From NCBI GenBank assembly GCA_040004085.1, contig JBDUBN010000001.1:555-64554 (forward strand): a stretch of 64,000 nt of DNA. The letters run 5' to 3'. Shown in pieces: positions 13,010 to 30,300 of this stretch (the first letter of the stretch is position 1; each line of letters opens with the position of its first letter). Below the pieces are notes generated by a model. The model had not been told where the DNA came from. It saw nothing but the letters and a program-made list of their open reading frames with translations, and searched no databases. A program made the translations under genes and the position numbers. Source of the stretch: Novosphingobium sp. (lineage in GTDB: Bacteria > Pseudomonadota > Alphaproteobacteria > Sphingomonadales > Sphingomonadaceae).

Positions 13010-13254
13010 AGGCCCGGGCAGCGACCGATGCTGCAAGAATATGCCCCAAAGGACCTGCGCCACAGAACGAGCGGCAGGAATCAAGAAGCGGTTCCGGGTG
13101 TGTGAATGGCGAGAATCAGGGTGGAAGCGGCCCGCCAGTTGAGGTGGATATAGACGGCTGAAATGACCACACGCCCTAATTCGAAGGCCAGTCCTTGCCT
13201 AAAATCTGAGGCCACTATGGCCTTTTCCGCATCATCATTGATATGCAAGGGTCC

Positions 13255-16218
13255 ATGCGAATCCTCACCTATCAGGACCTCGGCTCCCACCGCTTGCAAA
13301 AGGCCATCGGCAGGGTCCGGTCGGCGATCGCTGCCGGAGATTTTCGGGCCGCCGCGCTCAAGAAGTTGGCACCCACGCCTTATTGGCGGGCAAAGCTCGA
13401 CGACAAGAGCCGGTTGCTCATGCAGTTTGTCCGGCACGGTGGCGAGACCGTCTGTCTGTTTCTCGAAATCATCGACAATCATGCCTACGACAAGTCGCGG
13501 TTCCTGCGCGGTGCACGGATCGATCCCGACAAGATCGAGCAGGCGCCCGATGTCACCGCCGCTGACGTGTTGGCGCCCGATGTGGTCATGCCCGGCGCCC
13601 ATCCCTCCCGACTGACATGGCTTCATCCGACCCGCGATCAGTTTGTCCTACTGGACAAGCCGATCATGTTCGATGACGTCCAGGAAGCAGTGCGGCTGCG
13701 GCCGGCGCCACTGGTGCTGCTGGGGCCGGCGGGGTCTGGCAAGACCGCAGTCACGCTGACCAAGCTGCGCGAGGCCAGCGGGCGGGTGCTCTATGTCACC
13801 CAATCGGCCTATCTCGCCCAGTCGGCGCGCGGGCTCTATGGCGCGCATGGCTATGAGAACGATGGCCAGGAGGTGGAATTCCTGAGCTATCGCGAGTTTC
13901 TCGAGACCATCAGGGTGCCGATCGGAACCGAAGTCCGCTTCGCCGATTTCGAGCCCTGGTTCCATCGCCACCACACCGCTTTGCGCGGCGACGTGCAGGG
14001 GACCGACGCTTTTGCCTTGTTCGAGGAGTTCCGCGGCGTGCTCGGCGCCAGACCGGATGCGCCACTCAGCCTCGACGACTACCAAGCCCTCGGCGTCCGC
14101 CAGTCTTTATTCCCAACCGGGGGGGCGCGGGCCGTCATCCATGGGCTGTTTGGCCGTTATGTGGCCTGGTTGAACGAGAGCGGGCGCTATGATCTCAATC
14201 TCGTCGCGCATGCGTGGCGGCCGCTTGCCGAGCCAGCTTACGATTTCGTGGTGATCGACGAGGTCCAGGACTTCACCAACGCCCAGCTCGCCTTGATTCT
14301 TGCCACGCTGAAAAACCGAAAGCACTTTCTACTGTGCGGCGATGCCCATCAGATCGTGCATCCCAATTTCTTTTCGTGGGCGGCGGTGCGCGCGTTGTTC
14401 TGGCAAGGCGCCACCGGCGAGGATGTCGGATCAGGTCAGATCTCGGTGCTGCGGGCCAATTTCCGGAACACCCGATCGGTAACCGACATCGCCAATCGCC
14501 TGTTGCGCATCAAACAGGCACGCTTCGGTTCGATCGACCGCGAAAGCAGTTTCCTGGTCGACTGCGCCTCAAGCGAGGCCGGATCGGTGCAATTGCTGGC
14601 AGCAAAGGACTCGACCCTGCGCGATCTCGATGCGCGGTCGCGGGCGTCGGTACAGTATGCGGTCATCGTCCTGCGCGACGAAGACAAGGCGGCGGCGCGC
14701 GAGCGTTTCCGCACGCCGCTGATATTTTCGGTCCACGAGGTCAAGGGCCTCGAATATCCGCACGTCATCCTGTTCAATCTGATCTCAGGCGCCAGAGCGG
14801 ATTATGCCGAAATTTGCCGCGACGTCAGCCCCGCCGATCTCACCAGGGACAATCTGGAATATCGCCGGGCGCGCGACAAGACCGACAAGTCGCTGGAAAT
14901 CTACAAATTCTACGTCAACGCCCTCTATGTCGCGATGACCCGCGCGGTCGAGACCTTGGTTCTGGCGGAAACGGACATCCGCCATCCGTTGCTGTCGCTG
15001 CTCAACCTCAAGGAGGACGCGAGCGGCCTCGCCGGCGCAACCCAGACATCGACCAAACAGGAATGGGCGCTGGAAGCGCGCAAGCTGGAATTGCAGGGCA
15101 AGCAGGAACAGGCTCGCTCGATCCGCGAAACCTTTTTCAAGTTCAAGCCGACGCCATGGCAGCCTTGGTCGGAGGCCGCTATCCGCGCATCCGAGGCCCG
15201 CGCGCTCAATCCGAAAGACCCCTCGACGAAGCTCAAGCAGGCCTTGATGGATTATGGGCTGTGGCACAGCCAGCCGAAGTTCATCGAGGATCTGGCCGAC
15301 CAGGCGCGTTTTTACGCTGCCACCGCGATTTCGAGCCGTGGTGTGGTCGAAAATCACTCCGGTCACCTTTCCTTTTTGGGTCGCCTCGATCACCTGAACC
15401 GCCGCCACGACCGCGAAAATCCCGTTGCCAAGGCGATGAAGGCGCAAGCGGGCCGGCTTTTACGGCCTTATTCGGAACGCGCGTTCAAGCCGGTGCTGGC
15501 CGAGTGCGATCTTTACGGCGTCGATCACCGCGTTCCTTGTGGTGCGACTCCGCTGATGATGGCCGCGCGCGCCGGCAATCTGGCGCTGGCCGAGGCGCTT
15601 ATCGAGCGCGGTTCGGATCTTACTGCAACCGACGAATATGGCCACACCGCCTGGATGGTCGCCTTATGCCGAGCGGTGGCGGAGCCGGACTTCGCCGAAC
15701 AAAGCCTTGGCCTGCTCTTCGACGTTCTGGCTCCAGCCACGCTCGATGTTCAAACTGGGGGCCGGTTGGTCAAGCTCGAGCGCCATCAGGGCGAATATTG
15801 GCTGTTGAGCCTGATGCTGGCCAGTCTCAAGATCCAGGGCAGCGCGATGATCGACCGCAACTATCGAAGCTATCAGTATTCCCGGGGATTCTTTGCTGAC
15901 AGCTTCATGGATACACTGGTTGTACTGCCCGAACATCTCTGGCGCGCATCCCGCCGCAAACGCACCTATGTCAACGCGGTTTTGGCGCGCGCCGAAGTGG
16001 CCAGCAGCTATCGACCTGCCCGCAAACTCTGGGAGCGCTGGGGCAATGGCTATTATATGCCGGCCCGCGACATGCATCTTCGCCGCCGGAATGCGGAAGG
16101 GGACGATGTTTGGGTGCCGATCACCGAGGCGCTGAACCTGCTCTGGGTGATCCGCGGTACGCGTCCCTTGCCCGGTTCGCTCCTGACAGCGACGACTGAC
16201 GGGTCGGTGTATTTCTGA
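13255..16218 (+). CDS. SF1 (UvrD-like) helicase with N-terminal RelE/ParE-like domain and C-terminal ankyrin repeat(s)
   Basis: Walker A GPAGSGKT, DEVQD, GDAHQ, NFRNT, HEVKGLE, YVAMTRA; ankyrin TPLMMAARAGNLALAEALIERGSDLTATDEYGHTA; N-terminal YWRAKLDDKSRLL...IIDNHAY. Confidence 0.8.
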   Translation: MRILTYQDLGSHRLQKAIGRVRSAIAAGDFRAAALKKLAPTPYWRAKLDDKSRLLMQFVRHGGETVCLFLEIIDNHAYDKSRFLRGARIDPDKIEQAPDVTAADVLAPDVVMPGAHPSRLTWLHPTRDQFVLLDKPIMFDDVQEAVRLRPAPLVLLGPAGSGKTAVTLTKLREASGRVLYVTQSAYLAQSARGLYGAHGYENDGQEVEFLSYREFLETIRVPIGTEVRFADFEPWFHRHHTALRGDVQGTDAFALFEEFRGVLGARPDAPLSLDDYQALGVRQSLFPTGGARAVIHGLFGRYVAWLNESGRYDLNLVAHAWRPLAEPAYDFVVIDEVQDFTNAQLALILATLKNRKHFLLCGDAHQIVHPNFFSWAAVRALFWQGATGEDVGSGQISVLRANFRNTRSVTDIANRLLRIKQARFGSIDRESSFLVDCASSEAGSVQLLAAKDSTLRDLDARSRASVQYAVIVLRDEDKAAARERFRTPLIFSVHEVKGLEYPHVILFNLISGARADYAEICRDVSPADLTRDNLEYRRARDKTDKSLEIYKFYVNALYVAMTRAVETLVLAETDIRHPLLSLLNLKEDASGLAGATQTSTKQEWALEARKLELQGKQEQARSIRETFFKFKPTPWQPWSEAAIRASEARALNPKDPSTKLKQALMDYGLWHSQPKFIEDLADQARFYAATAISSRGVVENHSGHLSFLGRLDHLNRRHDRENPVAKAMKAQAGRLLRPYSERAFKPVLAECDLYGVDHRVPCGATPLMMAARAGNLALAEALIERGSDLTATDEYGHTAWMVALCRAVAEPDFAEQSLGLLFDVLAPATLDVQTGGRLVKLERHQGEYWLLSLMLASLKIQGSAMIDRNYRSYQYSRGFFADSFMDTLVVLPEHLWRASRRKRTYVNAVLARAEVASSYRPARKLWERWGNGYYMPARDMHLRRRNAEGDDVWVPITEALNLLWVIRGTRPLPGSLLTATTDGSVYF

Positions 16219-16476
16219 TATGAACGACTGGCTGGTATCAAGTCGATGATTCCGGGGCCTGTATGGCAACTCTGTTGGCGTGAGCAGCCATTGCCCCCCC
16301 TGTATGAAAATGCATGTTTTCGAATACCGTGGCTGGAGCATTTCATAATTGGCAAACCCGCTCGAATTGAAGAAAGCAGCGGAAACTCGGAGTGCGCGGT
16401 TTCGCGCGGACGCTTAGCGTATATCTGCGCCATCTCTATATGTACCTCCGGATAAAGTTACACTCACCCACGCCTG

Positions 16477-17160
16477 TCAGGTGTTCAGCAGCTTCTTTTC
16501 GTAAACGGTGCTGATCGCGCCGCCATCCCAGACATAGCAGAGATGGCGCTCCTGACGGCAGTTGGATAAAAGACGCGGGCGAAATACCGCCGCGCATTCG
16601 CCTCCATCATGGCGCACACTCTGATAAGCGATCCCATCGGAGCCTGCCTCGCGCAGCTCGCGCGCGGTTTCTTGCGACATGCCATAGCTGGAGAGATGAT
16701 AGAGCGCCGGATGGCTTGCCCGCATTTCACGAATGTCATGCAACGCAGCGTCGAGATCGACCGCATAGACCCGCATATCGACTTCCTGCGGCGGCTCATC
16801 GGTCGCGCTCAAGAAAAGCATCCGGTGGTGTCGCGTCTCGGCGACCGCCGTGTCCAGCGTCAGGCTGGCGTAAAATACGCCATAGCTGCCGTCGGTGAAG
16901 CGATCACCTTGCGGATTGAGATGAGTGAACGCCGCCATGATCGCGGATGTGCCCGGCCCTGATATGCGATCTTCGGGGGCAACAAGGGAGAGCTCTCCGG
17001 CTTCTTCGCGCAGCCGGTCATTGGTCATCGCCTCGATCTGGAACACTGCCTCCAGATCGGCAGGATCAGCGACCGTCTCGAACAATGAGATCGGCGGGAA
17101 ACGACTGGGAATGATCCGATAACAGGGCGTCCAGTGAACTGCGGCAACAGGAATATCCAC
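16477..17160 (-). CDS. RES-domain toxin (NAD+ phosphorylase/ADP-ribosyltransferase-like)
   Basis: YRIIPSR (R), RFTDGSYGVFYAS...TAVAET (E), GIAYQSVRH (S). Confidence 0.9.
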   Translation of the reverse strand: MDIPVAAVHWTPCYRIIPSRFPPISLFETVADPADLEAVFQIEAMTNDRLREEAGELSLVAPEDRISGPGTSAIMAAFTHLNPQGDRFTDGSYGVFYASLTLDTAVAETRHHRMLFLSATDEPPQEVDMRVYAVDLDAALHDIREMRASHPALYHLSSYGMSQETARELREAGSDGIAYQSVRHDGGECAAVFRPRLLSNCRQERHLCYVWDGGAISTVYEKKLLNT

Positions 17161-17162
17161 GA

Positions 17163-17549
17163 TCAGCCGCGCTGACCATCAACGTATTGGCGCACGACAT
17201 AAAGGTCAGCGACATTACCGGACATCATCCGGTCCAGTGCGGAATTTCCGGCGAAAGGCCGCGCCTTGTTCGGCTTACGCACCCATTCATCCGCCGTTTT
17301 CGGAACGAGGATGTGCAGGCCTTTGTATATGCCCATTACATAGGAAATACGCTCCAGCGCATCCTTGGGGAGCGCTGCGATCGCACCGCGTTTCCATGAC
17401 TGAAAGGTTGACCGGCTTTCAAGGCCCAACAGGCGCATCTGCTCCTGCTCCTTCAATCCCCACGCATCTGCAATCCGGAAAAATGTCCGTAATGCCGGAC
17501 CCGTCAGATCCTTACGATCCAGCGCCGGCGCGGCGGTTGCTGTTGCCAT
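17163..17549 (-). CDS. Xre/MbcA/ParS-family antitoxin
   Basis: N-terminal HTH (FFRIADAWGL...TFQSWK); C-terminal EWVRKPN...F.G.SALDRM...VRQYVDGQRG; directly upstream of the RES toxin. Confidence 0.9.
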   Translation of the reverse strand: MATATAAPALDRKDLTGPALRTFFRIADAWGLKEQEQMRLLGLESRSTFQSWKRGAIAALPKDALERISYVMGIYKGLHILVPKTADEWVRKPNKARPFAGNSALDRMMSGNVADLYVVRQYVDGQRG

Positions 17550-17572
17550 AGCATCACGTCCTTTCATGCTCC

Positions 17573-17601: not shown

Positions 17602-17761
17602 GCTATCGTATAAATCTGAACATGATTGGTCGCAGATTCAATATTTAATGCTTCTGCTTGTGTCATGTTCATCTTTGTTCTATTGGCTATATTTGAACAA
17701 GGGACAGACTGCTTGGTGGGCGTCGTGATGCGCCAGGGTGGAGAGACCCAATGGAGAGCGC

Positions 17762-18415
17762 ATGAGCCTAACTCTCGGAGCCGTAATGGCCCTGTCGCAG
17801 CAATGCGCGCCGGGGATCGCCCTTGAGGCGATAGTGCCGCAGGTTCATGTCGAATCGCATTTCAACGAGCTGGCAATAGGCGTGAACAATGGGCCGAAAG
17901 TCCATGCACGTTCGCTGGCTGAGGCGGTTATGCTCGCGACCCACTATATTCAAGCGGGTTACAGCGTCGATCTCGGGCTTGCCCAGATCAATTCCAAAAA
18001 TCTTCGGCGGCTCGGTCTTACGGTCGAGCAGACGTTCGATGCCTGCGCGTCGCTGCGCGCGGCTTCCGTCGTGCTGGCCGAGAATTACAGCCAGGTCAGC
18101 ACGAGCCGGGCGGGCGTCGATGCGATTAACGCGACTTGGAGCCTCTACAACAGCGGCTCGACCACGCGCGGCATACGCAACGGCTATGTGGGCAAAGTAT
18201 GGACCACAGCAGCCGATCTGATCCCGCAGATGCGAGCAATCCTCGGCACCGGCCAACTTCCTCAACTCAGCTCCGAGCCTGGCGATGCTTCGCCGCAAGT
18301 TGCTCCACCTGATCCGCAAGGGGCGGCTTCGGCCCCTCTGCCATCGCCGCAACCACAACCGCGCTGGATCTACGGCACACCAAACACCGACGCCATCATG
18401 TTCAAAGGCCAATGA
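17762..18415 (+). CDS. virB1: VirB1 lytic transglycosylase
   Basis: QCAP, HVES catalytic motif, SVDLGLAQINS, SLYNSG. Confidence 0.9.
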   Translation: MSLTLGAVMALSQQCAPGIALEAIVPQVHVESHFNELAIGVNNGPKVHARSLAEAVMLATHYIQAGYSVDLGLAQINSKNLRRLGLTVEQTFDACASLRAASVVLAENYSQVSTSRAGVDAINATWSLYNSGSTTRGIRNGYVGKVWTTAADLIPQMRAILGTGQLPQLSSEPGDASPQVAPPDPQGAASAPLPSPQPQPRWIYGTPNTDAIMFKGQ

Positions 18416-18427
18416 AGAGAGGGAAAT

Positions 18428-18727
18428 ATGCAACATCAAAGTAGGAATCCTGAAGGGCGAAATGTCCTGATCGCGTGTGTGGCAATCACCGCCCTCGCCA
18501 TACCTTCGGTCGCGATGGCCGATCCGACCAACATCACGAGCGGTCTTACGAGCATCGAAACCTGGCTGATCTCGGCTGCGAAGATCATCGCGGTCATCGC
18601 CTTCATCGGGTGCGGCCTCGTCAAGATGGTGGGCCGGATGAACTGGGGTCACTTTTTCTCGGTGATGACGGGATGCGCCATCGTGTTCGGCGCCGCCCAG
18701 CTTGCCGACTGGATGCAGACCGGATGA
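18428..18727 (+). CDS. virB2: VirB2 pilin
   Basis: Signal peptide ending AMA, two TM segments, IVFGAAQL. Confidence 0.85.
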   Translation: MQHQSRNPEGRNVLIACVAITALAIPSVAMADPTNITSGLTSIETWLISAAKIIAVIAFIGCGLVKMVGRMNWGHFFSVMTGCAIVFGAAQLADWMQTG

Positions 18728-19077
18728 GCGCCGACGGCAAGGACAGCTTGATGCTGGCAATGACACGGCCCCCCGTGTTCGCCGGCATACCAATGGGAGC
18801 GTTCGCAAGTGTCCTGTCGGCCGGGATGCTGGTGTTCGCGGCAACGAACAATTTCCTCTGGGGCATTGCCGTTGCCGGACCGCTTTACCTCATCAGCCGC
18901 GTGGTCGTGCTCTACGACATCAACGCATTCAACCTCGTCGGACTGTGGCTTCGGACCCGGTTCAAACAGAGCATTTTTGTGACCAACCGGCGGTATTGGG
19001 GCGGCAATAGCTACTCGCCCACCGCCATCCATCTTGCCAAACGCGAAGGCTTCGGACGTGTGGAAGCGGCAGAGTAA
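18724..19077 (+). CDS. virB3: VirB3
   Basis: AMTRPPVFAGIP and WGGNSYSP motifs. Confidence 0.9.
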   Translation: MSADGKDSLMLAMTRPPVFAGIPMGAFASVLSAGMLVFAATNNFLWGIAVAGPLYLISRVVVLYDINAFNLVGLWLRTRFKQSIFVTNRRYWGGNSYSPTAIHLAKREGFGRVEAAE

Positions 19078-21433
19078 GACCGTACAGAATTTGGCCGCGT
19101 TGCGGCGGGAGAACGACTATGTGCCGTATCTCCCCTATCTTCGGCATGCCTCGGACGAAGTCATCGTCATGCCCAATGGGTGCGGGATGCGGATGTTCGA
19201 GCTGCAGGGCCGTTCGTTCGAGACGAACGACTGGAACGAGCTGGTTGCCTGGCACAACAAGCTCAATATCGCGATCCGGCAGATTGGTGACGACCGCTTT
19301 TCGATGTGGACGCATATCGTCCGCCGGCCGATCAAGCCTTACCGGGCCGATGGCTTCCGCAGCGAGTTTGCTCGCGCGCTGGACCAGAAATATTACGACA
19401 AGCTCGTCGGCACGACATTTTACGAGAACCGCTTCTATGTGACGATCATCGTCAAGCCGGTCGATATGATGTCGACAGTGCTTGGCAAATGGTTCTCAGG
19501 CGACACCGAAACTGACGAGCTTAATGCGCGCGATCTCGCGCTGCTCGACAGCAAGTGCCTCGATTTCGCAACGGCGATGCAGGACTGCGCGCCGATCATT
19601 CTCAAGGCCTATGAGCACAATGGCGTGATGTTCTCAGCGCCACTCGAAGTGCTGCATTACGTCATAACGGGTGACGATCTCAGAATCCCGATCGTCGATG
19701 GCCCGATCGGCCAGGCCATGTACTCAAGCCGGATCATCTTCGGCAAGGAAACGGTCGAAGTCCGCCTGCCCCATAAGACGCATTATGCCGCCATGTTTGG
19801 CATCCGCGACTATGTGGTCGAGACGCGTACCGGGCAGTTCAACTCGCTGCTCGGCCTCGATATGCCCTTCGTGCTGACCCAGAGCTTCACCTCCCAGGTG
19901 AAGGGGCAGGCGATGGACAAGCTGGCGAAAAAGCAGCGCCAGTTTGAATCCTCGGAGGACGCAGGCATCAGCCAGGCCGAGGCTCTGACCGCGGCAATGG
20001 ACCAGCTCATGGGCAATGAGTTCGTGATGGGCGACCATCATTGGTCGCTGATGGTGATGGACAGCGATCCGCAGCGCCTTCTTCACCGGATCAGCGTAGC
20101 GCGCAGCGCCGCGGCAGACACCGGCATGGTCATCGCGCGCGAGTCACTCGCTCTGGAAGCGTCATTCTGGGCGCAACTGCCGGGCAATTGGCAGATGCGC
20201 GCACGGCCCGCGATGATAAAATCGACAAACTTCGCTGCCCTCTCGCCCTTCTATACCTATCCCTCGGGCAAGGCTGACGGCAATTGGTGGGGTGAGGCGG
20301 TCGCCCTGCTCAAGACCAATGCCGCCGGCTCTTTCTGGTTCAACTTCCACGTCGGCGATCTCGGGCACACCCTTATCATCGGGCCGTCGGGTGGCGGTAA
20401 GACCGTGCTCCAGAACTTCCTGCAAGCGCAGCTCGAAAAGCTCGATACGACGCAGGTCTTTATCGACAAGGATCGAGGTGCGGAGATTTTCGTGCGCGCA
20501 TCTGGCGGCACCTATCTCCCCTTGCAGAACGGCAAGCCAACAGGCTTCGCGCCGTTCAAGGCTGCGTCCAATGCGCCGCACGATGTCGCATTCCTGAGCG
20601 CGTTCGTGCGGGTGCTGGTCCGCGATGAACGGTATCCGCTGACTGTCGATGACGAGCGGCGTATCGACGAAGGCGTCGATGCCATGTTGCGGCTTCCATC
20701 GGGGCAGCGCTCGCTCTCCGAATTTCGCGCGCTACTCGGCTTTCGTGATGCCGAAGGCATCGGCAGTCGGCTCGAGAAATGGTGCGCAAGTGGCGCACTG
20801 GGCTGGGTTTTCGACAATGAGGATGACCGGCTGAAACTCGATACCCGCTTCATGGGTTTCGACATGACGGACTTTCTGGACAATCCTGAAATCCGCACGC
20901 CGCTGATGATGTATCTCTTCCACCGCATCGAGGCGTTGCTCGATGGGCGGCGTCTCGTTCTCGACATTGACGAGTTCTGGAAGGCGCTGGGCGATGACAC
21001 GTTCAAGGCGTTCGCCAATGACGGCCTGAAGACCTTCCGCAAGCTGAACGCGATGCTGGTGTTCGGTACGCAATCGCCAGCGGACGCGCTCAGGAGCGAT
21101 ATCAGCCATTCGATCATCGAACAGACTGCGACCAAGATCCTCCTGCCCAATCCGTTCGCGCGAGAGGAGGAATACCGCAAGGGACTCGGCCTCACCGAAG
21201 TCGAATTCAAGCTCATCAAGCGCGACCTGTCGCCCGAGAGCCGCGCCTTCCTCATTAAGCAGGGCAACACTTCGGTCGTCGCCCGCCTCGACATGAGCGG
21301 CATGGACGACGAGCTGGCAGTGCTGTCGGGCCGCGCCGAGACGGTCATTGCCATGGAACGCGCGATAGCGCGGACCAGTGACGATCCTGCGCATTGGCTG
21401 CCAGCATTTCACGAAGAGAGGAAGCGCCGGTGA
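19034..21433 (+). CDS. virB4: VirB4 ATPase (alternative start GTG 19058)
   Basis: FWAQLPGN, GHTLIIGPSGGGKT, DKDRG, IDEFW, RKLN, TQSP. Confidence 0.95.
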   Translation: MPNAKASDVWKRQSKTVQNLAALRRENDYVPYLPYLRHASDEVIVMPNGCGMRMFELQGRSFETNDWNELVAWHNKLNIAIRQIGDDRFSMWTHIVRRPIKPYRADGFRSEFARALDQKYYDKLVGTTFYENRFYVTIIVKPVDMMSTVLGKWFSGDTETDELNARDLALLDSKCLDFATAMQDCAPIILKAYEHNGVMFSAPLEVLHYVITGDDLRIPIVDGPIGQAMYSSRIIFGKETVEVRLPHKTHYAAMFGIRDYVVETRTGQFNSLLGLDMPFVLTQSFTSQVKGQAMDKLAKKQRQFESSEDAGISQAEALTAAMDQLMGNEFVMGDHHWSLMVMDSDPQRLLHRISVARSAAADTGMVIARESLALEASFWAQLPGNWQMRARPAMIKSTNFAALSPFYTYPSGKADGNWWGEAVALLKTNAAGSFWFNFHVGDLGHTLIIGPSGGGKTVLQNFLQAQLEKLDTTQVFIDKDRGAEIFVRASGGTYLPLQNGKPTGFAPFKAASNAPHDVAFLSAFVRVLVRDERYPLTVDDERRIDEGVDAMLRLPSGQRSLSEFRALLGFRDAEGIGSRLEKWCASGALGWVFDNEDDRLKLDTRFMGFDMTDFLDNPEIRTPLMMYLFHRIEALLDGRRLVLDIDEFWKALGDDTFKAFANDGLKTFRKLNAMLVFGTQSPADALRSDISHSIIEQTATKILLPNPFAREEEYRKGLGLTEVEFKLIKRDLSPESRAFLIKQGNTSVVARLDMSGMDDELAVLSGRAETVIAMERAIARTSDDPAHWLPAFHEERKRR

Positions 21434-21873
21434 TGGCGCACGAAGCCCCCTGGTCAGTTCGCGCGGCTGCCTGCGTGATCGGCGCCGTCGATCATGTTGT
21501 CCTCGCCGTGATGAGCGCGTTGCAGGCCATGGGCGAGCGCCAGTCGATAGATCAGAGCAAGCCGCCTCTCGCGGCGTTCAGGAAAGCAACGGCCGTGGGT
21601 GCCAAGGGCGCCAAATGGACGGTCGCGGGTGTGATCGGCCTCGGTGTCCTTTTCATGGTCGGTGCGGCCATCTTCATGCCGCGCGTCAAGCCGGAACCGA
21701 ATGCTCGCCGGGCTACACCCGCATCAGCAACAACAGTGGTCGCAGACAGCGACCGTGGCGTGATCGGACGGCAGTGCCGCGCCGGTGCGTATCGGGGATT
21801 CCCCGAAATTGAAAAGGCCGAATGCGCTGGTCGGCCACCAGTTTCCCCGGCGCCCAAAGGAGACGCAAAATGA
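21433..21873 (+). CDS. Hypothetical single-pass membrane protein within the virB operon
   Basis: Translationally coupled to virB4 (TGATG) and virB5 (ATGA); TM segment WTVAGVIGLGVLFMVGAAIF. Confidence 0.6.
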   Translation: MAHEAPWSVRAAACVIGAVDHVVLAVMSALQAMGERQSIDQSKPPLAAFRKATAVGAKGAKWTVAGVIGLGVLFMVGAAIFMPRVKPEPNARRATPASATTVVADSDRGVIGRQCRAGAYRGFPEIEKAECAGRPPVSPAPKGDAK

Positions 21874-22622
21874 AGAAGGCCCTGTTTCTTGCAGCGGTGA
21901 TGACGATCTGCGTGCCGGCAACGGCCGGGGCGCAGGGCATCGCTGTTTATGACAATAGCAGCACGCTCCAGCTCATCAGCCAGGTGAAGAACACCCTGCA
22001 ACAGATCCAGCAGGGCGAGCAGATGATCAATCAGGCGACGCAGACGTATCAATCGTTCGCCAAGCTCACCAACACGGCCAATTTCGCGAACATCCTCAAC
22101 AATGCGAACGTCAATCAGCTCTTGCCAAGCGGCGTGACGGACGTGGTGACGCTCGCTCGTTCCGACTATAGTGCGCTGGGTAATTTCGGCTCGGCCGCCC
22201 AGGGGCTGAGCAACGGCTATTCGATCCAGACAAACCTTGGCCAGGGCGGCACACTCGATGGCACGGTGTCGTCAGCATACGGCCGCTTTCTCCAGTCGAT
22301 CAATCAGGGGCCGTCAGTCGCGGCCACACTGGGCTATAATGTCAGCAACCAGGCCAAGCAGGTCGATGCAGGCCTTGATGAGCTGCGTCAGGACATCAGT
22401 ACCGCGCAAGACCCCAAGGACTCGATGGACCTCGCCGCGCGCGCCACCATCGAGAACGCGAAAATCAACAACCGCCTGCTGCAATTGATGGGGATGCAGC
22501 AATATTACAACGCGAACGAACGCATGCGCTACAACGCGTATCGGCTGAGCAACACGGCCGCGCGGATGAGCGCGATCGACACCAAGTTGCAGACCAGTTC
22601 TACTCAGTGGACGGGTTACTGA
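21870..22622 (+). CDS. virB5: VirB5 minor pilin
   Basis: Signal peptide, QGIAVYD, Gln-rich helices, AQDPKDSMDLAAR. Confidence 0.9.
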   Translation: MKKALFLAAVMTICVPATAGAQGIAVYDNSSTLQLISQVKNTLQQIQQGEQMINQATQTYQSFAKLTNTANFANILNNANVNQLLPSGVTDVVTLARSDYSALGNFGSAAQGLSNGYSIQTNLGQGGTLDGTVSSAYGRFLQSINQGPSVAATLGYNVSNQAKQVDAGLDELRQDISTAQDPKDSMDLAARATIENAKINNRLLQLMGMQQYYNANERMRYNAYRLSNTAARMSAIDTKLQTSSTQWTGY

Positions 22623-22624
22623 CC

Positions 22625-22894
22625 GTGAAAAGGGCCGCCGTCCTGGGTGCGGCGTTGGGACTGGCTGCGTGCAACACGCAGCCAGCAACCCCGCCTGGGC
22701 CTCGTATCCCCAACATCACCATCGCGATGCTGGACAAGGACCCATCGCTCTATCCGAAATATCAGCCGCTCTGCATTTCGCTCAACGCGAGCAGCACGCT
22801 GACCAAGCTCGAGGATCTGCGCTGCGTCTCGCTGACCGCGCAGGCCCGCCTCTACCTGACCATGCACGATCTCAAGCGCTGGCCGGGCAAGTGA
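22625..22894 (+). CDS. Small lipoprotein, probable entry-exclusion protein
   Basis: Lipobox LAAC; position between virB5 and virB6, as for eex in IncN/IncW systems; two further Cys. Confidence 0.55.
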   Translation: MKRAAVLGAALGLAACNTQPATPPGPRIPNITIAMLDKDPSLYPKYQPLCISLNASSTLTKLEDLRCVSLTAQARLYLTMHDLKRWPGK

Positions 22895-22923
22895 CCATCG
22901 TTCCTCTCAGAAAGCATTGAACC

Positions 22924-23973
22924 ATGGCCGCCGGGGTCTTCGAGTCGCTCTACAATGCCTATGCCGGCACACTCGCATCGGTGACGAGCACCTATGTCGG
23001 CCAGTGGACGCCGATCGCCACGACCGCATTTGCCGCAAGCGGCGCACTTTATTTTATTCTGCTCGGATTTCTCGTCTTTCGCGGTGCCGTCGCCCGTCCA
23101 CTCGCCGAGGTGGCAGTGAGCGCAACCAAGTTCGCGTTGATGATCGCATGTCTTGGGTCGCTGGGTTTTGTCGGCCAGGCCGTCACCACGCTGAACCAGC
23201 TCGGTCCTAGCCTTGCCGGCGCATCGACGGGTTCGAATGTCGGACAGGCGATGGACGAATATTTCGCCGGAGTCTGGAAGATCCAGAAGGCGATGGAATT
23301 GCGCGAATCCCAGCGTGCGGCCAATGCCAGCGCCAGCGGACAGGATCAGGGCGTCGTCGCCAGCGTAGTCACCTCCCTCACCGGCGTCGACATCGATCAG
23401 GCCATCGAGAAGATCGAGGACTTCCTCGCGTTGATCATGGCAGTGGTATGCGCCGGAATCTCGGCTGCGGTCGGCTTCTGCGTGTTGTTCTTCGCCCAGA
23501 TCGCGCTCGACATCGTCTTATGTTTTACGCCGATTGCGATTGCCTGCGTGTTCTGGCCGCAGACCCGGTGGTTCTTTCAGGGCTGGCTTAGCCAGGCGAT
23601 CAACTACGTCATTCTCTATATCGTGCTGATCATCATGACGAAGATGATCGTCGATGCGAACATCGCCACGGTGAATATGTTCCTCGGCACGAGCGCCGAT
23701 CTGGTCGCCGCTTCAGCTTCATCGCCCGGCCTCATCGCAACCGAGTTTCTGACCGAAGCAATCGAAATCATGCTGGTCTATCTGGTCGGGACATTCCTGT
23801 TCTTCCAGGCACCGGCGATTGCATCGGGCCTCGCTGGCGGCGCGGCCTCAGGTGGTCACACCTTCATGGCGTTGGCCGCCAATCAAGTCATGAACCGCGC
23901 GGGCGGCAGAATGGGCGGCGCCGGCCGCGCAGCGGCGGCCGCATCGCGCGGTGGTTCCATTTCGAGGGGATAG
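22924..23973 (+). CDS. virB6: VirB6
   Basis: Polytopic membrane protein; TRWFFQGWLSQ and QAPAIASGLAGG motifs. Confidence 0.9.
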   Translation: MAAGVFESLYNAYAGTLASVTSTYVGQWTPIATTAFAASGALYFILLGFLVFRGAVARPLAEVAVSATKFALMIACLGSLGFVGQAVTTLNQLGPSLAGASTGSNVGQAMDEYFAGVWKIQKAMELRESQRAANASASGQDQGVVASVVTSLTGVDIDQAIEKIEDFLALIMAVVCAGISAAVGFCVLFFAQIALDIVLCFTPIAIACVFWPQTRWFFQGWLSQAINYVILYIVLIIMTKMIVDANIATVNMFLGTSADLVAASASSPGLIATEFLTEAIEIMLVYLVGTFLFFQAPAIASGLAGGAASGGHTFMALAANQVMNRAGGRMGGAGRAAAAASRGGSISRG

Positions 23974-23974
23974 G

Positions 23975-24304
23975 ATGTTGCGCATACCAACTGGGACAGT
24001 TTTGGCGCTGGTCGCGGCCGGCATGGGTTTGAGCGGGTGTGCGCCACAGCTCAAAAAGCTGAGCACCTGCACTTCGGGCCATTATCGCTATGCAAACCCG
24101 AACGGCACGACGCTGCCCTCACTCGCGGTCCCCTCCCCCGACGATCTGAACGGGCCGCCACCTGTGCCTGCAGTGACCCCCACACCGGCACCTGCGCACG
24201 GAGGAGGCAAGGCCCGACACGGCACACGCGCGCCGGTGGCCTCGCCGCCGAGGCGCGGAGCGATGCTGCTCCCCTCACCCGCATCTTCGTTTCGGAGCTG
24301 CTGA
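23975..24304 (+). CDS. virB7: VirB7-like lipoprotein with Pro-rich extension
   Basis: Lipobox LSGC, C...RYANP; position between virB6 and virB8. Confidence 0.6.
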   Translation: MLRIPTGTVLALVAAGMGLSGCAPQLKKLSTCTSGHYRYANPNGTTLPSLAVPSPDDLNGPPPVPAVTPTPAPAHGGGKARHGTRAPVASPPRRGAMLLPSPASSFRSC

Positions 24305-24307
24305 GCG

Positions 24308-24985
24308 ATGCGCGAATATTCCAGGAAGGAAATGGAGCAGTTGTCGGCCGCAGGCCGCGACTGGCAGCGCAATGACATCTTGCGCGCGAAATGGAGTTCG
24401 CGCTTCGCCTGGGCGCTCGCCATCGTCATGACCATCGTGGCGATCGTCGCGGTCGGTGCGGTCGCCATGCTGGCACCGCTCAAGAAGGTCGTGCCCTATG
24501 TGATCCAGGTCGATCGAGCGACCGGCAATACCGCCGTTATCACCGCGATGAGCGGCACCAATCCGGCAACTTATGGTGCCAGCCTCAAGCGCCACATGAT
24601 CGCGCAATATGTGAGCAATCGCGAAGGCTGGGTGCCGCTCGCGGAGAATGAGATGGTCCACGCGGTCAATCTTCTATCCAGCACCGAGGAAGCGCAGCGG
24701 TTCAATCAGTGGTTCGTCGCGACCAACCCATCGAGCCCGCAAAAGTCGTTCGCCGATATTCCCTTCGTTAAAATCGAAATCCGCTCGATCAGCTTCATCA
24801 ACGATAGCGTCGCGCAGGTACGTTACACGCAGACCGTTTATGAGCACACCGGGCCGGCGCAGGTCGGCCGCTATATCGCCACTTTGACCTATCGGATTAC
24901 CAGCAAGCCGCCGCTCGATGCGGATTTGCAGGTCAATCCGGTCGGCTTTGAAGTGACCAATTACCAGACATCGCCGGAGAACTGA
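24308..24985 (+). CDS. virB8: VirB8
   Basis: TM segment then LAPLKKVVPYVIQVDRATG, YVSNREG, NPVGFEVTNY. Confidence 0.92.
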   Translation: MREYSRKEMEQLSAAGRDWQRNDILRAKWSSRFAWALAIVMTIVAIVAVGAVAMLAPLKKVVPYVIQVDRATGNTAVITAMSGTNPATYGASLKRHMIAQYVSNREGWVPLAENEMVHAVNLLSSTEEAQRFNQWFVATNPSSPQKSFADIPFVKIEIRSISFINDSVAQVRYTQTVYEHTGPAQVGRYIATLTYRITSKPPLDADLQVNPVGFEVTNYQTSPEN

Positions 24986-24986
24986 T

Positions 24987-25913
24987 ATGCGTACCGCACT
25001 CCTCGCGCTCGCGCTGGTCCTGCCGTCGACAGGGGCCTGGGCCGACGCGGTTCCTGTCGGCGGCAAGGCTGACTCGCGCGTCCGTTTCGTCGAATATAAC
25101 CCCAATCAGGTTTACACGATCTATGGCCGCTTCCGGCACGCGCTGGAAATCGAGTTCAGTCCCGGCGAGACGATTACCCAGGCCGCCCTGGGCGATACGA
25201 TCTCATGGGAAATCGCGCCCATCGGCAACATCATCTTCCTGAAGCCGCGCGAATCCGGCCGATCAACAAATCTGATCGTGCTGACCAACTACAGGGGCCA
25301 GACGCGCAGCTACCGTTTCCAGCTCGTCATGAATGGCGGGCCGCCGATGTATTCGATCAAGTTTCGCTACAGCGGCGAAGAGGCCAGTCGCAGCCGCGAT
25401 GCAGCGCTCTATGCCCAGATACAGGCAGGCCGCGATGCCGAGGCCGGTGTGGTGAAAGCCGCGCTCGACCAGGCCGTCGTCGAGGGCAAACGCAACCTCG
25501 ATTACTGGTTTCGGGGCGACAGCCAGCTCGAGCCGAGCGAGGTTTCGGACAATGGCGAATTCACCGTCATGCGCTTTCCCGGCCATCAGGAAATCCCGGC
25601 CATCTTCGGCGTCAATCAGGACGGAGCCGAGGCGATCATCGATTACGATGTCCGTGAGGATTATGTCGTGATTCACGGCATCTACAAGGAGATGCGGCTG
25701 CGCAAGGGTAAGTCCGTCCTCTGCGTCACCAACGGAGCGCCGCCCGCCAAGGGCCGTCTTGATCGCACCGGAACCGTCTCACCGATTATCGAGCGCACAG
25801 TCAAACCTGGCCTGCGCGCTCCTGACGGCAGCGCCATCACGCCGCAGACCGGCCAAGGGCAGCGCCTGCCCGCTTCGCCGCCGCAACCGCAATCCGCGCC
25901 GGAGGAGCAGTGA
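24987..25913 (+). CDS. virB9: VirB9
   Basis: DSRVRFVEYNPNQV, FLKP, TNLIVLT, PSEVSDNGEFT. Confidence 0.92.
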   Translation: MRTALLALALVLPSTGAWADAVPVGGKADSRVRFVEYNPNQVYTIYGRFRHALEIEFSPGETITQAALGDTISWEIAPIGNIIFLKPRESGRSTNLIVLTNYRGQTRSYRFQLVMNGGPPMYSIKFRYSGEEASRSRDAALYAQIQAGRDAEAGVVKAALDQAVVEGKRNLDYWFRGDSQLEPSEVSDNGEFTVMRFPGHQEIPAIFGVNQDGAEAIIDYDVREDYVVIHGIYKEMRLRKGKSVLCVTNGAPPAKGRLDRTGTVSPIIERTVKPGLRAPDGSAITPQTGQGQRLPASPPQPQSAPEEQ

Positions 25914-27163
25914 CAATGAGCGAGGAAGTGATGTCGGTCCCAGGCGACCGGGATGCCGTCGGCGCTGACGCCGCGCTCGCGCGCTCGCGCGGGACCGTAA
26001 ACCGCAAGATCATGCCAGTGCTGTTCGGCGCGGGTATCGTAGGAGGCGGCATCATTACGACGCTGTTGATCCTGTCGGCCCATGCGATGATCTGGCCCGC
26101 GCAGAAAGAGCCTGAGCAGAAGGCGGGCACCGCCAGAACCGTCTCTGAACAACAGGCAATGCAGCAGGATGCCGCGTTCAAGGCGCTGAATGGCGGGATC
26201 GGACATGCCTCAGGGCAACCACTGACGCCGGGACAGACCGCACTGGCGGGCGGTCAGCCGGTCAACACCTTTGGCAATCCGCAAGCGCCGGTGCCGACTG
26301 GCGGCGCCGGGACGCCCAAGCTCAGCCGTGCGCAACAGCTCGCTATCGCCTCCCAGCGGGCGCCGATTATGGGATATGCTGGCGGCCTGGGCGGCGGCTT
26401 TACGCCGCAGGGACAGAATGGCGGCGCACCGCAGATGGGCGCGCCCATGCCCGGGCCGCTTGTCGGTGGTCAGGGCGGGCCGCAGGGTGCGGGCGGCTTC
26501 GTCACGGCCCCGGTCAGCGCTTCGGGCGATCTGGGAGGCCAACTCACCCGCAGCAAGATCGAGGTCGCGCGCGCCACCATCATCGGCGACCGCAATTTCC
26601 TCGTTGCTGCCGGCCGAACCATCCCCTGCACGCTGCAAACCGCGATCAATTCGACCCAAGCCGGAATTGTGTCCTGCATCATTGGTCAGGACATCTATTC
26701 CGAAAACGGCCGCGTGGTGATGCTCGACAAAGGCACCAAAGTTCTCGGCCAGTATACAGGCGGCGTGCGGCAGGGTCAGGCGCGTCTGTTCGTGGTCTGG
26801 ACGCGGGCACTGACACCGCGCGGAGTTGCAATCGATCTCGGATCACCGGCGAGCGATGAGCTTGGCCGTGCCGGTATTGGTGGCGGCGTCGATACCCAGT
26901 TCTGGCAGCGCTTTGGCGCGGCACTAATGTTCTCGGTGCTTGAGGATGCGGCCTCGGTCGCGTCGACCCATTTTGCGGGTATCGGGACCAATTCAACCCA
27001 GGTGCCGGCGAACACCGCCTCGGCCGCCCTCAATGGCTCACAGAATGTGCAGCCGATCCTCAAGGCCAATCAGGGCCAAACCGTCGCGATCCAGGTCGCG
27101 CGGGATTACGACTTTGGCACCGTCTATGATGTGCGGATCAAGCAGCCGCAGGCGGGCCGTTGA
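25910..27163 (+). CDS. virB10: VirB10
   Basis: TM segment, Pro/Gly linker, GRTIPCTLQTAINS, DELGRAG, VDTQFWQRFGAA, VARDYDF. Confidence 0.93.
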   Translation: MTMSEEVMSVPGDRDAVGADAALARSRGTVNRKIMPVLFGAGIVGGGIITTLLILSAHAMIWPAQKEPEQKAGTARTVSEQQAMQQDAAFKALNGGIGHASGQPLTPGQTALAGGQPVNTFGNPQAPVPTGGAGTPKLSRAQQLAIASQRAPIMGYAGGLGGGFTPQGQNGGAPQMGAPMPGPLVGGQGGPQGAGGFVTAPVSASGDLGGQLTRSKIEVARATIIGDRNFLVAAGRTIPCTLQTAINSTQAGIVSCIIGQDIYSENGRVVMLDKGTKVLGQYTGGVRQGQARLFVVWTRALTPRGVAIDLGSPASDELGRAGIGGGVDTQFWQRFGAALMFSVLEDAASVASTHFAGIGTNSTQVPANTASAALNGSQNVQPILKANQGQTVAIQVARDYDFGTVYDVRIKQPQAGR

Positions 27164-28198
27164 ATGGCGGCGGTCGGCGAGAGGACGTTCGACGCCTTCT
27201 TTGCGCCGATCGCACCCCATTATGAACGCAAGGATGTCACCGAGGTCGTCGTCAACGCAATCGGCGAGATCGGCATCGAAACACCCAATGGCTGGGAGTG
27301 GATAGAGACGCCCGAGCTTGATTATCGCGCGCTGCGTACTCTCTGCGATCTGATCGCAGGTTTTACGAAGCAGGACGTCAGCGAGGAAATGCCGGTCGTA
27401 TCGTCGGTTCTGCCCGACGGTGCCCGCGTCCAGTGCGTCATCCCGCCAGCGGTGCCCACGGGCACGGTGTCGATCACCATCCGCAAGGCATCCTCGATCG
27501 CCATGTCGATGGAAGATCTCGAACAGGGCGGATTGTTCGAGAGGACGGCGCCGCGTGAGGCGAGCCCGACCGACGACGAACTGCTGGCGCTGTATCGGGA
27601 CAAGGATTGGCCGCGGTTTCTCAAGCGAGCGGTCGAGGAGAGGAAAAACATCCTGATTTCGGGCGCGACGGGCAGCGGCAAGACCAGCCTGTCGAAGGCA
27701 CTTATCAAACTCATTCCCGATTATGAGCGCATCCTCACGATCGAAGACACGCGCGAGCTGGTCGTGCCGCAGCGCAACTGCGTTCACATGACCTATTCCA
27801 AGGACGGAAATTCACGGCTGAAGATCGGCGCGAAGGAGTTGCTCGAATCCTCGCTGCGGATGCGGCCTGATCGTATCCTGCTGCAGGAGCTGCGCGACGG
27901 CACTGCCTTTTTCTATCTGCGCAACGTCAATTCGGGGCATCCGGGATCGATCACCACGGTCCATGCAAACTCGGCCGAAGGGGCGCTCGAACAGCTCACG
28001 TTGCTGGTCAAGGAGAGCGAAGGCGGCAACGATCTCGCGCGTGATGACATCCGCGCCTTGCTCCGGTCGCTGGTCGATATTGTCATCCAGATGAAGCGCT
28101 TTCCGCCGCTCGACGGCGAGAGCGCAAAATATCGGATGACGGAGGTGTGGTTCAGGCCAGCGGAGAGCGAAGATGGGCGGAGTGTGGGGGCGCTATAG
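27164..28198 (+). CDS. virB11: VirB11 ATPase
   Basis: SGATGSGKT, TIEDTRE, LRMRPDRI, SGHPGSITTVHA. Confidence 0.95.
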   Translation: MAAVGERTFDAFFAPIAPHYERKDVTEVVVNAIGEIGIETPNGWEWIETPELDYRALRTLCDLIAGFTKQDVSEEMPVVSSVLPDGARVQCVIPPAVPTGTVSITIRKASSIAMSMEDLEQGGLFERTAPREASPTDDELLALYRDKDWPRFLKRAVEERKNILISGATGSGKTSLSKALIKLIPDYERILTIEDTRELVVPQRNCVHMTYSKDGNSRLKIGAKELLESSLRMRPDRILLQELRDGTAFFYLRNVNSGHPGSITTVHANSAEGALEQLTLLVKESEGGNDLARDDIRALLRSLVDIVIQMKRFPPLDGESAKYRMTEVWFRPAESEDGRSVGAL

Positions 28199-30284
28199 CG
28201 CCTGGATTCATATCCTTGCGATCGGCGCCGGTCTTCTAATCGGTGCTGTGCTGGGATCAGTACTCGGCAGCGTCATCGCGCTCGGCAAAAACCATCTGCT
28301 GACACTGCACACCGATCCCAGGGCAGTGCCGTTCGTCATGTGGGCGATGCGCCATGACATACGCTTGGCCGGTCCCTTCCTCATCATTCTGGGCATCGTC
28401 ACCCTCTTGTCGATCTGCGGCATGTACGCGCTGCTGTTCGGCAATGAATCCCTGTTCGGAGAGGCCCGGTTCGCGAGCGGCAACGATATTCGCAAAGCCG
28501 GGGCATTTCGCGAACAGGGGGCGATAATCGGCCGATGGGGCTCGCGCTGGATGCGAGCTGATGCCGAAGACAATGTGATGTGCCAGGCCCCTCCCCGCTC
28601 GGGCAAAGGCGTCAGCTTCGTGATTCCCAACCTGCTGATGATCGACCACTCGGCCGTATGTGTCGATCTGAGGGGTGAGAATTACAACAATTCAGCGCGA
28701 TACCGGGCGGACGAGCTGGGCCAGTCAATTTACGTCCTCGATCCGCTCAATGCAGATGGCACGACGCATTGCTTCAATCCTCTCTCCTACATGGACCGGC
28801 AAATCCCGCACGTGCTGATCGAGCAGATGCAACGGCTTGCCATCCAGCTCTTCCCCTACCCCCTCCAGGGAAACCCCTTCTTCACCGACAGCGCGCGTGA
28901 CGGCTTCAGCGCCGTCGGTTGCCTTCTGGCGTCCGAACCCGACCAGGATCTGACGCTGGCAAACATCTTCACGGTGCTCGCAGGCGATCCGCGCAAGACC
29001 CTCATGGGCAAGGTGAAAGTGCTGGAGGAAGAATTACAAGCCGGCAAGCGGCCGATTGCGCCAGGTGCGATCGACCTGATGAAGAGTTTCTGCGCCCATA
29101 ACGACGAAACCTACATGAACATCCGCTCGACCATTCAGAGCAAACTTGGCCTGTTCGCCCTGCCCCGCGTCGTGCTCGCGACCCGGCGCAGCGACTTCGA
29201 TCTGCGCGAACTGCGCAGCACACGCATGACGATCTATCTGCGCTGCGCGCCCGATGATTTCGACATCCTCGCGCCGCTCTTCAATTTGATCTTCCAGCAG
29301 ATCGTCAGCCTGAACAGCCATGACGAGTTTGTCCGCACGGAATATTCCTTCTACGAAAAATGCGAGGAGGTTGCGAACCGCTATGAGCGCGGCGGGCTGA
29401 CCCGCAAGACGCTGATCCCAGAATTGCGCCGGGCATGGCGGGGCAAGTATCGGCCGATCGCGCCGCGCTCGCAGCGCTGCCTTCTCATCCTTGATGAGTT
29501 CAAGCGGCTCGGTAAGATGGACGTCCTCGCCGATGCCATGTCCTACATGGGCGGGTTTGGGATCTCGATGGCGCCGGTAATCCAGGCCCATTCGCAGCTT
29601 CAGGAGGTCTATGGCCCCTATGCGGCAAACACGATCCAGACCTGTTGCCAGACCAATATCGTCATGCGGCCAAACACGTTTCAGGACGCCGAGGCGATCT
29701 CCAAGCAGCTTGGCTCGAACGGGATTGTGGTCAGGAACCGCAGCACGACCCGCTACAATGTGCTGGCCTCGGTCGGAAACAGCAGCCTTGGCAGCAACAG
29801 CGAGAGCCTCGGTCAACGCCCCCTTCTCTTCCCCAAGGAGGTCACGGAGATGCCGCGGCGAAAGTCGCTCATCTTCAAGGCTGGGCAACCGGCGATCCTT
29901 TCCGACCGTGTGCTGTATTTCAAAGACCGGACATTGCGGAAGCGCGCGGCGATGGGCGGCGTCGAACTGCCTCGTCAGAACATCGAGGACTATTACGCCT
30001 ACATGGCGGGCCAGCGCGGCTTTGCCGCGGCGTTCGGAGACACCGATCCTGACGCGGAATCCGGCGGAGTCGATTTCGATTTCAAGGCCGATGTCGAGCA
30101 GGTGTTTGACGATCTCGCTGCAAACGAGGGCGGCTTTGCTCCTGCCAATATCACGAACACGCTCGCCGCCATGAAAGGGCTGATCGCCGATGCCGATGTG
30201 TCAGCGTACCGCCATCAACTTGAGGCCGAGCTGTCCCTCGCAGTCGCCGACAATGCCGCGCCTGTGGCAGCCCGATTGAAATAA
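28173..30284 (+). CDS. virD4: VirD4/TraG coupling protein
   Basis: Two N-terminal TM segments, FGEARFA, APPRSGKGVSFVIPNLL, LDEF, IQAHSQL...YG. Confidence 0.93.
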   Translation: MGGVWGRYSAWIHILAIGAGLLIGAVLGSVLGSVIALGKNHLLTLHTDPRAVPFVMWAMRHDIRLAGPFLIILGIVTLLSICGMYALLFGNESLFGEARFASGNDIRKAGAFREQGAIIGRWGSRWMRADAEDNVMCQAPPRSGKGVSFVIPNLLMIDHSAVCVDLRGENYNNSARYRADELGQSIYVLDPLNADGTTHCFNPLSYMDRQIPHVLIEQMQRLAIQLFPYPLQGNPFFTDSARDGFSAVGCLLASEPDQDLTLANIFTVLAGDPRKTLMGKVKVLEEELQAGKRPIAPGAIDLMKSFCAHNDETYMNIRSTIQSKLGLFALPRVVLATRRSDFDLRELRSTRMTIYLRCAPDDFDILAPLFNLIFQQIVSLNSHDEFVRTEYSFYEKCEEVANRYERGGLTRKTLIPELRRAWRGKYRPIAPRSQRCLLILDEFKRLGKMDVLADAMSYMGGFGISMAPVIQAHSQLQEVYGPYAANTIQTCCQTNIVMRPNTFQDAEAISKQLGSNGIVVRNRSTTRYNVLASVGNSSLGSNSESLGQRPLLFPKEVTEMPRRKSLIFKAGQPAILSDRVLYFKDRTLRKRAAMGGVELPRQNIEDYYAYMAGQRGFAAAFGDTDPDAESGGVDFDFKADVEQVFDDLAANEGGFAPANITNTLAAMKGLIADADVSAYRHQLEAELSLAVADNAAPVAARLK

Positions 30285-30300
30285 CAACCAGCGCAGGAGA

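Follow-up and report, generated by a model that had tools for sequence, protein, structure and literature searches.

Does the gene at positions 13255..16218 (forward strand) of a stretch of Novosphingobium sp. DNA encode a toxin fold that is governed by a helicase in the same chain, and what would such a protein be for? The stretch, referred to here as the window, comprises 64,000 nucleotides (positions 555 to 64,554 of contig JBDUBN010000001.1, assembly GCA_040004085.1). As a rule, RelE-type toxins have a separate antitoxin that controls them. In the product of this gene, a RelE fold is permanently joined to an ATP-driven helicase and a predicted recognition tail, and the same arrangement recurs in hundreds of sequence clusters. 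The gene is real and intact. Its product consists of a RelE/YoeB-fold head, a compact superfamily 1 (SF1) helicase, a helical segment, ankyrin repeats and a tail domain that is tentatively winged-helix-like. A preliminary description of the window, made from the sequence alone, had proposed a RelE-like head followed by an SF1 helicase, a helical region and ankyrin. This domain order is borne out by Pfam matches, by motifs and by structure models.

The open frame extends from 13243 to 16218 on the forward strand (991 codons). Homologs do not start at the in-frame ATG at 13243. Instead, the methionine of the sequence MRILTY is the first residue in all 30 homologs compared, and the real start is therefore at 13255, as had been predicted. 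Residues are numbered here from the ATG at 13243, and the true start is thus M5; counted from M5, the product has 987 amino acids (aa). Hundreds of proteins of 970-1,020 aa can be aligned with it over their full length. The nearest metagenomic relatives share 93-74% identity with it, with full-length homologs at up to 93%, and members in the Betaproteobacteria and in other Alphaproteobacteria share approximately 60%. The nearest named relative, at 85% identity, is encoded on a 907-kb plasmid of Polymorphobacter megasporae. Scans for promoters and terminators return nothing useful above shuffled sequences.

The head comprises residues 5-95 (13255..13527, forward strand). In an AlphaFold2 model built on an alignment of 57 diverse members, the mean predicted local distance difference test score (pLDDT) is 83, with values above 89 over residues 1-80. 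The model has the compact alpha/beta fold of RelE/ParE proteins, with an N-terminal strand and helix and a four-stranded antiparallel sheet. In a Foldseek search of the PDB with this model, nearly all of the top ~50 matches are RelE, YoeB, YafQ, HigB or ParE toxins (best E-value 6e-4, probability 1.00, template modelling (TM) score by target 0.55-0.66). The best match in the VIA comparison is 6n90, with a Z-score of 7.4 and a root-mean-square deviation (rmsd) of 2.2 Å over 74 of 86 residues. YoeB, RelE, YafQ and HigB match with Z-scores of 6-7 and overall rmsd values of 2.2-2.8 Å over 71-76 residues. A Z-score of ~7 is middling, but the RelE-type fold is convincing because the match list consists of a single superfamily that covers the whole domain. 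The RelE/ParE-like character that had been read from the N-terminal ~85 aa is congruent with these models. At the sequence level, a profile of residues 1-135 finds no relative among the PDB sequences. An hhalign comparison of the head profile with a single E. coli YoeB sequence is not significant. A local hhalign comparison with 17 YoeB sequences gives an E-value of 1.3e-3 with a probability of 19%, and pairs W48, R57 and K40 of the head with W56, R65 and E46 of YoeB, respectively.

Within the head, K41, R49, R57 and H80 are invariant among the 57 diverse members, and near-invariance extends to E75, Y82 and the SRFLRG segment that follows. These residues are also kept in a copy from Shigella. 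In the RNase branch of the RelE toxins, the catalytic residues are E46, R65, H83 and Y84 in YoeB and K52, K54, R61, R81 and Y87 in RelE. H80 and Y82 are placed at YoeB H83 and Y84 by strand order; this is our own mapping and does not come from the alignment. With this placement, the conserved K/R/R/E/H/Y set of the head appears to fall where RelE-type RNases have their active site, and it may form a live active site.

Stand-alone versions of the head were not convincingly found; the short profile matches that were checked come from contigs of 1-1.8 kb with low coverage and seem to be truncated. Large open reading frames (ORFs) with a Pfam YoeB_toxin match in a genome of the same class (G514) do not form a sequence bridge; the single ORF that was checked is a polymorphic-toxin-like protein with the YoeB domain at its C-terminus. 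That genome contains six such ORFs of 800-950 aa with the Pfam match above its cut-off, one at L040 4772-7498 (reverse strand) and the others at five other loci (L030, L033, L035-L037 and L039). They resemble polymorphic toxins whose tips are of the YoeB type. The match lies in the last ~60 residues of the ORF that was checked, and the other five are taken to be of the same kind.

A variable linker (residues 96-125; 13528..13617, forward strand) separates the head from the motor. Its pLDDT is 54-59 and its alignment columns are variable. The SF1 UvrD-like helicase core occupies residues 126-590 (13618..15012, forward strand), and its motifs I-VI are complete and near-invariant in 117 homologs. 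They include a Walker A motif GPAGSGKT at residue 161 (13723-13746), DEVQD at residue 339 (14257-14271), GDAHQ at residue 366, NFRNT at residue 406 (14458-14472), HEVKGLE at residue 498 (14734-14754) and YVAMTRA at residue 562, all on the forward strand. The Pfam families UvrD_C_2, AAA_19 and UvrD-helicase are found above their cut-offs, and Viral_helicase1 is also matched. There are no Pfam matches in residues 1-135 or past residue 830. Motifs IV (NFRN, residue 406) and V (KGLE, residue 501) are 95 aa apart. The corresponding spacing in E. coli UvrD is 281 aa, which means that the 2B domain is absent here. The preliminary description had reported a full motif set, ~90 aa between NFRNT and HEVKGLE and no 2B domain, and all three points agree with the alignment. 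The distance from Walker A to motif II is 175 aa, compared with 188 aa in UvrD, and would leave room for a 1B-type insertion.

The C-terminal 396 residues form a confident AlphaFold2 model (pLDDT 90.7, predicted TM score 0.90). The tail begins with a helical region (residues 596-725; 15028..15417, forward strand) for which no fold match is found. This region holds the segment EW..EARKLELQGK.EQA, which is among the most conserved of the tail. It is followed by about three ankyrin repeats (residues 740-832; 15460..15738, forward strand), which match designed ankyrin repeat protein (DARPin) structures in the PDB. Pfam detects one repeat, at residues 766-803, with Ank_5 at 33.1 bits (cut-off 27), Ank_2 at 28.6 bits (cut-off 27.3) and Ank at 25.6 bits (cut-off 21.1). 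In VIA comparisons, residues 740-832 match ankyrin with Z-scores of ~6 and rmsd values of 2.1-2.6 Å over 81-84 residues. Foldseek searches with the C-terminal model return ankyrin proteins only. The helical region and ankyrin repeat or repeats of the preliminary description are thus both present, with one repeat in Pfam and about three in the model.

The last part of the tail, residues 840-962 (15760..16128, forward strand), is modelled with pLDDT values above 90 and is tentatively assigned as a winged-helix-like domain. An exhaustive VIA comparison matches it with Z-scores of 5.2-6.3 to the globular domain of histone H1, to YceH, MecI, Fur/PerR, MarR and Z-alpha, and to the winged helices of ORC2 and cullin. 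On these structural matches, a winged-helix-like nucleic-acid-binding module is, tentatively, more likely than a dedicated sensor. For the aromatic and arginine-rich C-terminal domain that had been proposed as part of a sensor, the structural matches (Z 5-6) tentatively point to a winged-helix-like fold. In the ESM Atlas, the tail and its C-terminal module recur only in the family's own clusters; the searches otherwise returned generic ankyrin-repeat clusters.

A search with the head profile finds 527 representative clusters at the 50% identity level. In the top 150 clusters, long proteins (about 900-1,580 aa) carry the head at their N-terminus. When seven long members were scanned against Pfam, all seven contained the helicase and four contained ankyrin. 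Two of the seven (P0202 and P0219; 1,370-1,394 aa) have a DUF1186 domain and a SEC-C motif added at the C-terminus. Identity to the Novosphingobium protein is 41-57% in the head and the motor alike and 20-35% in the tail. A slowly evolving head and motor with a fast-evolving tail is what is usually seen when a conserved effector is combined with a variable part for recognition.

The distribution of the gene is patchy. It is found in none of 36 other species of the genus, in none of 24 genomes of the order, and in 7 of 393 good genomes sampled across the Pseudomonadota (~2%). The richest family seen has it in 8 of 81 genomes and 4 of 23 genera. Among complete E. coli genomes, 115 of 5,426 are positive (~2%), mostly with chromosomal copies. 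There are 132 plasmid records with the gene, 101 of them from Shigella. The Shigella copy on pWR100 of S. flexneri M90T is 41% identical to the Novosphingobium protein and is annotated as a UvrD-helicase domain-containing protein. Literature searches on the architecture, on the Shigella gene and on a link to TRANK1 found no study of the family; for TRANK1, the eukaryotic ankyrin/UvrD-like protein of which the preliminary description had been reminded, they found no link stated. These proteins form a large uncharacterised family with one shared architecture, and the family is patchy and horizontally mobile.

The limits of DNA similarity with close relatives, from blastn and flank alignment, are at 13216..16255. 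They enclose the gene and ~40 bp on each side. These flanks (13216-13254 and 16219-16255) recur in close relatives whose neighbourhoods are unrelated; where protein identity is 83-91%, the surrounding genes are quite different. The mobile unit thus seems to be a bare ~3-kb cassette, consisting of the gene and ~40 bp per side.

In a survey of 13 neighbourhoods, approximately nine contain plasmid, transposase, recombinase, island or type IV secretion system (T4SS) markers, and five or six contain a toxin-antitoxin (TA) pair within a few kb. The Polymorphobacter megasporae copy adjoins a Tn3 resolvase and a transposase. The E. coli chromosomal copies are cargo of CP4-like islands, together with antirestriction, DUF932 and Gp2-family genes. 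No recurring partner gene, including any small antitoxin-like gene, is present in the 13 contexts. On pPSA1-3 of Piscirickettsia salmonis (L080 2028-15988), the gene is flanked on one side by DruA (Druantia), MazEF, a RelE/ParE-HTH pair and a recombinase, and on the other by a SIR2 gene and an ATPase gene.

In the window itself, the upstream neighbour encodes a DUF3617 protein with the lipobox LSAC, and ordinary metabolic genes lie beyond it. Directly downstream there is a complete TA pair, formed by a RES-domain toxin (16477-17160, reverse strand) and an Xre/MbcA-ParS-type antitoxin (17163-17567, reverse strand). This RES/Xre pair (16477-17567) is a separate module and is unrelated to the helicase gene. 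A 69-aa ORF at 16246-16455 (forward strand) was rejected as a partner. It has no Pfam match, lies outside the conserved cassette and is probably not a gene. A VirB-type T4SS operon follows (17738-31242, forward strand). It encodes SLT/VirB1, VirB3, VirB4, a T4SS protein and TrbL/VirB6, continues to the VirD4 coupling protein (28173-30284, forward strand) and ends with an LPD7-domain protein (30301-31242, forward strand). Neither a relaxase nor an integrase was detected in the parts scanned, and there is no tRNA in the window. Synteny with the genus does not delimit the borders of an island, because the upstream 2.5 kb are unconserved there at the DNA level. The preliminary description had placed a stand-alone gene between a lipoprotein and a TA pair, next to a transfer operon; the neighbours are as it stated, and the survey is congruent with a gene that stands alone.

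The reading that we prefer, with a probability of about 45%, is that the protein is a one-protein conflict or defence module in which the tail would recognise, the helicase engage and the head cleave mRNA. In this proposal, the tail would recognise a protein or nucleic acid that is foreign or abnormal, and the ATP-driven helicase would engage that nucleic acid. Engagement would release or position the RelE-type head, which is joined to the motor by a flexible tether. Cleavage of mRNA by the head, probably at the ribosome, would follow and would shut down translation, either the invader's or that of the cell itself. An antitoxin would not be needed, because the head would be restrained within the same polypeptide. 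The points that favour a conflict module are the fold of the head, its invariant residues, the intact motor, the contrast in rates between the tail and the rest, the patchy spread, the mobility of the cassette, the mobile-element and TA contexts, and the precedent of ArmD, a component of a published anti-phage system that is compared below. The preliminary description had likewise proposed a sensor, an ATPase switch and an RNase of the abortive-infection type. That scheme fits the anatomy of the protein, and as a mechanism it is still conjectural.

Several observations weigh against this reading. No NCBIfam or PADLOC model covers the whole protein, and the weak partial matches to RecB, PcrA, Rep and GajB are over the helicase motifs. 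None of 30 heads matches any Pfam family at E-values up to 10, the RelE/ParE families included. The catalytic assignment follows from secondary-structure order and the weak hhalign match (probability 19%) and not from model coordinates. The strong conservation of the head would equally suit a non-catalytic ribosome-binding role. The winged-helix match of the tail has a Z-score below 8. Most of the neighbourhoods of homologs contain housekeeping or mobile-element genes. Among the 13 contexts, several are plain housekeeping neighbourhoods, such as that with pdxH and groESL in Verminephrobacter, and pPSA1-3 is the only one that is clearly defence-rich. The preliminary description had listed housekeeping contexts among the findings that would speak against its proposal. 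Some homologs are in mobile-element or TA contexts and one of the 13 is defence-rich, but several are among housekeeping genes, and it is for this reason that the confidence is not set higher.

The housekeeping copies are also one of the points in favour of a different role, in which the protein would be a helicase of ribosome or mRNA surveillance, loosely like Upf1 or HrpA, with an accessory function in host stress. The head would then be mainly an A-site adaptor that recruits the motor to translation complexes that are stalled or aberrant. Head and motor are equally conserved, as would suit a target that does not vary, like the ribosome; there is no conserved immunity or antitoxin gene, and the Pfam family Viral_helicase1, an SF1 RNA helicase family, scores equal to the UvrD families. 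However, patchiness and frequent horizontal transfer are unusual for a quality-control factor, the tail diverges fast, and the putative catalytic H/Y/R/K residues are invariant although a mere adaptor would not need them. This role is unlikely. The same degree of probability is given to the view that the gene is cargo that serves mobile elements such as pINV, CP4-like islands and megaplasmids, as an addiction, exclusion or anti-defence factor that aids their persistence or competition. It is kept on the 101 Shigella plasmid records, pWR100 included, and on other plasmids. It is also kept in the E. coli islands beside antirestriction, DUF932 and Gp2-family genes, adjoins a T4SS operon and a RES/Xre pair in the window, and lies by a Tn3 transposase in Polymorphobacter. 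The 101 Shigella pINV records are not independent, however, because they are related by descent, many chromosomal copies have no mobile-element genes within 10 kb, and addiction would call for an antitoxin-like partner, which is not found.

Database annotations of family members as UvrD-like or as DNA helicase II suggest instead an accessory helicase of DNA repair or replication. In such a protein, the head would be a degenerate, non-catalytic binding domain, and the ankyrin and winged-helix-like tail would recruit partners. Winged-helix-like domains commonly bind DNA, and there are sequence matches to PcrA and Rep. As with UvrD, these matches are weak and do not extend beyond the motifs. The protein lacks a 2B domain, no copy of the gene was found among the close relatives that were searched, and the active-site-like residues of the head are invariant. 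A role in DNA repair or replication is quite improbable. A broader form of the conflict-module reading is possible but doubtful. It holds that the family is a widespread one-protein immune or exclusion system of a new type, in which a RelE-type RNase that depends on the ribosome is gated directly by an SF1 helicase of the same chain, with no antitoxin or partners, and in which the ankyrin/winged-helix tail diversifies for recognition. On this view, phage or plasmid traffic in Shigella and E. coli would be shaped by a factor that has gone unrecognised, namely the copies on the virulence plasmid and in the islands, respectively. Should the helicase indeed gate an active RNase in the head, a classic toxin would be regulated by a new logic, within a compact module of defence or exclusion encoded by one gene. 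The contribution of the RelE-helicase component ArmD to the ARMADA system would then become clear as well.

The preliminary description recognised no named system in this gene. This holds, although ArmD is a published analogue, the only one found with this design (PMC12458937). ArmD belongs to ARMADA type II of E. coli NCTC 12900 and ATCC 8739, has a RelE-like predicted RNase head on a UvrD/GajB-like helicase, and is required for anti-phage defence (bioRxiv 10.1101/2025.09.15.676423 = PMC12458937). ARMADA II is a fixed operon of four genes, and ArmD works only with ArmA (BrxHII-like), ArmB (a PglX-like methyltransferase) and ArmC (YprA-like) (PMC12458937). In the E. coli ATCC 8739 genome, ArmD is a protein of 704 aa (L060 7558-9672, reverse strand) that follows the ArmA, ArmB and ArmC genes. 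The ArmD family is very large, with about 8,000 of 8,000 scored candidates at E-values below 1e-20 (P0274-P0393 are among the homologs), and its members are often annotated by the JGI as SF1 helicase/RelE endonuclease.

The likeness between the two proteins is one of design. In both, an N-terminal RelE-like head is followed by a long linker and a UvrD-like SF1 helicase in which the insertion that separates motifs IV and V is reduced (to 123 aa in ArmD and 95 aa here). Both heads end in D.H..AY..R, and both match the YoeB profile at an E-value of about 1e-3. Unlike the Novosphingobium protein, ArmD has no ankyrin or winged-helix tail. The Novosphingobium gene also stands alone, with a lipoprotein gene and the RES/Xre pair as neighbours and without ArmA, ArmB or ArmC partners. 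A YprA-type (MZB/DUF1998) domain was not detected in the Novosphingobium genome, whose completeness is 87%. BLASTP aligns the two proteins at 24% identity, in the helicase motifs alone and not in the heads. An hhalign comparison of the two head families gives an E-value of 0.12, and that with the single ArmD head is not significant. A search of the ATCC 8739 chromosome with the Novosphingobium protein did not retrieve ArmD. Judged by sequence, the protein is ArmD-like in design and is not a member of the ArmD family or of ARMADA II, because the partners are absent and the similarity is limited to generic helicase motifs.

The other systems compared each share one part of the architecture. The ribosome-dependent mRNA interferases YoeB, RelE, YafQ and HigB share the fold of the head, in which conserved basic, histidine and tyrosine residues appear to lie at the strand and C-terminal positions of their active site. 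These toxins stand alone at about 85-95 aa, whereas the present head is fused to ~900 further residues, has no cognate antitoxin or Pfam match, and continues past the His/Tyr positions as the invariant SRFLRG. It is not a canonical toxin of a TA system. In Cami1, a CARF-RelE fusion of type III CRISPR systems (PDB 8phj, ribosome-bound; VIA Z-score 5.4), a RelE-fold RNase is likewise fused to a regulatory domain that replaces the antitoxin. Cami1 is controlled by a CARF domain that binds cyclic oligoadenylate and not by a helicase, and there is no sequence relation between the two proteins. GajB of the Gabija system and UvrD, PcrA and Rep share the SF1 motif set. The PADLOC defence models, which had been suggested as a check, return only partial and generic GajB-type matches to the helicase motifs. 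These matches (E-value 1e-10) cover stretches of ~90 aa, there is no adjacent GajA (OLD/TOPRIM) and no 2B domain, and the Novosphingobium protein has an additional head and tail. By these sequence features, the protein is not GajB. The fusion of a toxin fold to a helicase is known in kind, and the stand-alone gene with an ankyrin and winged-helix-like tail is a new form of it.

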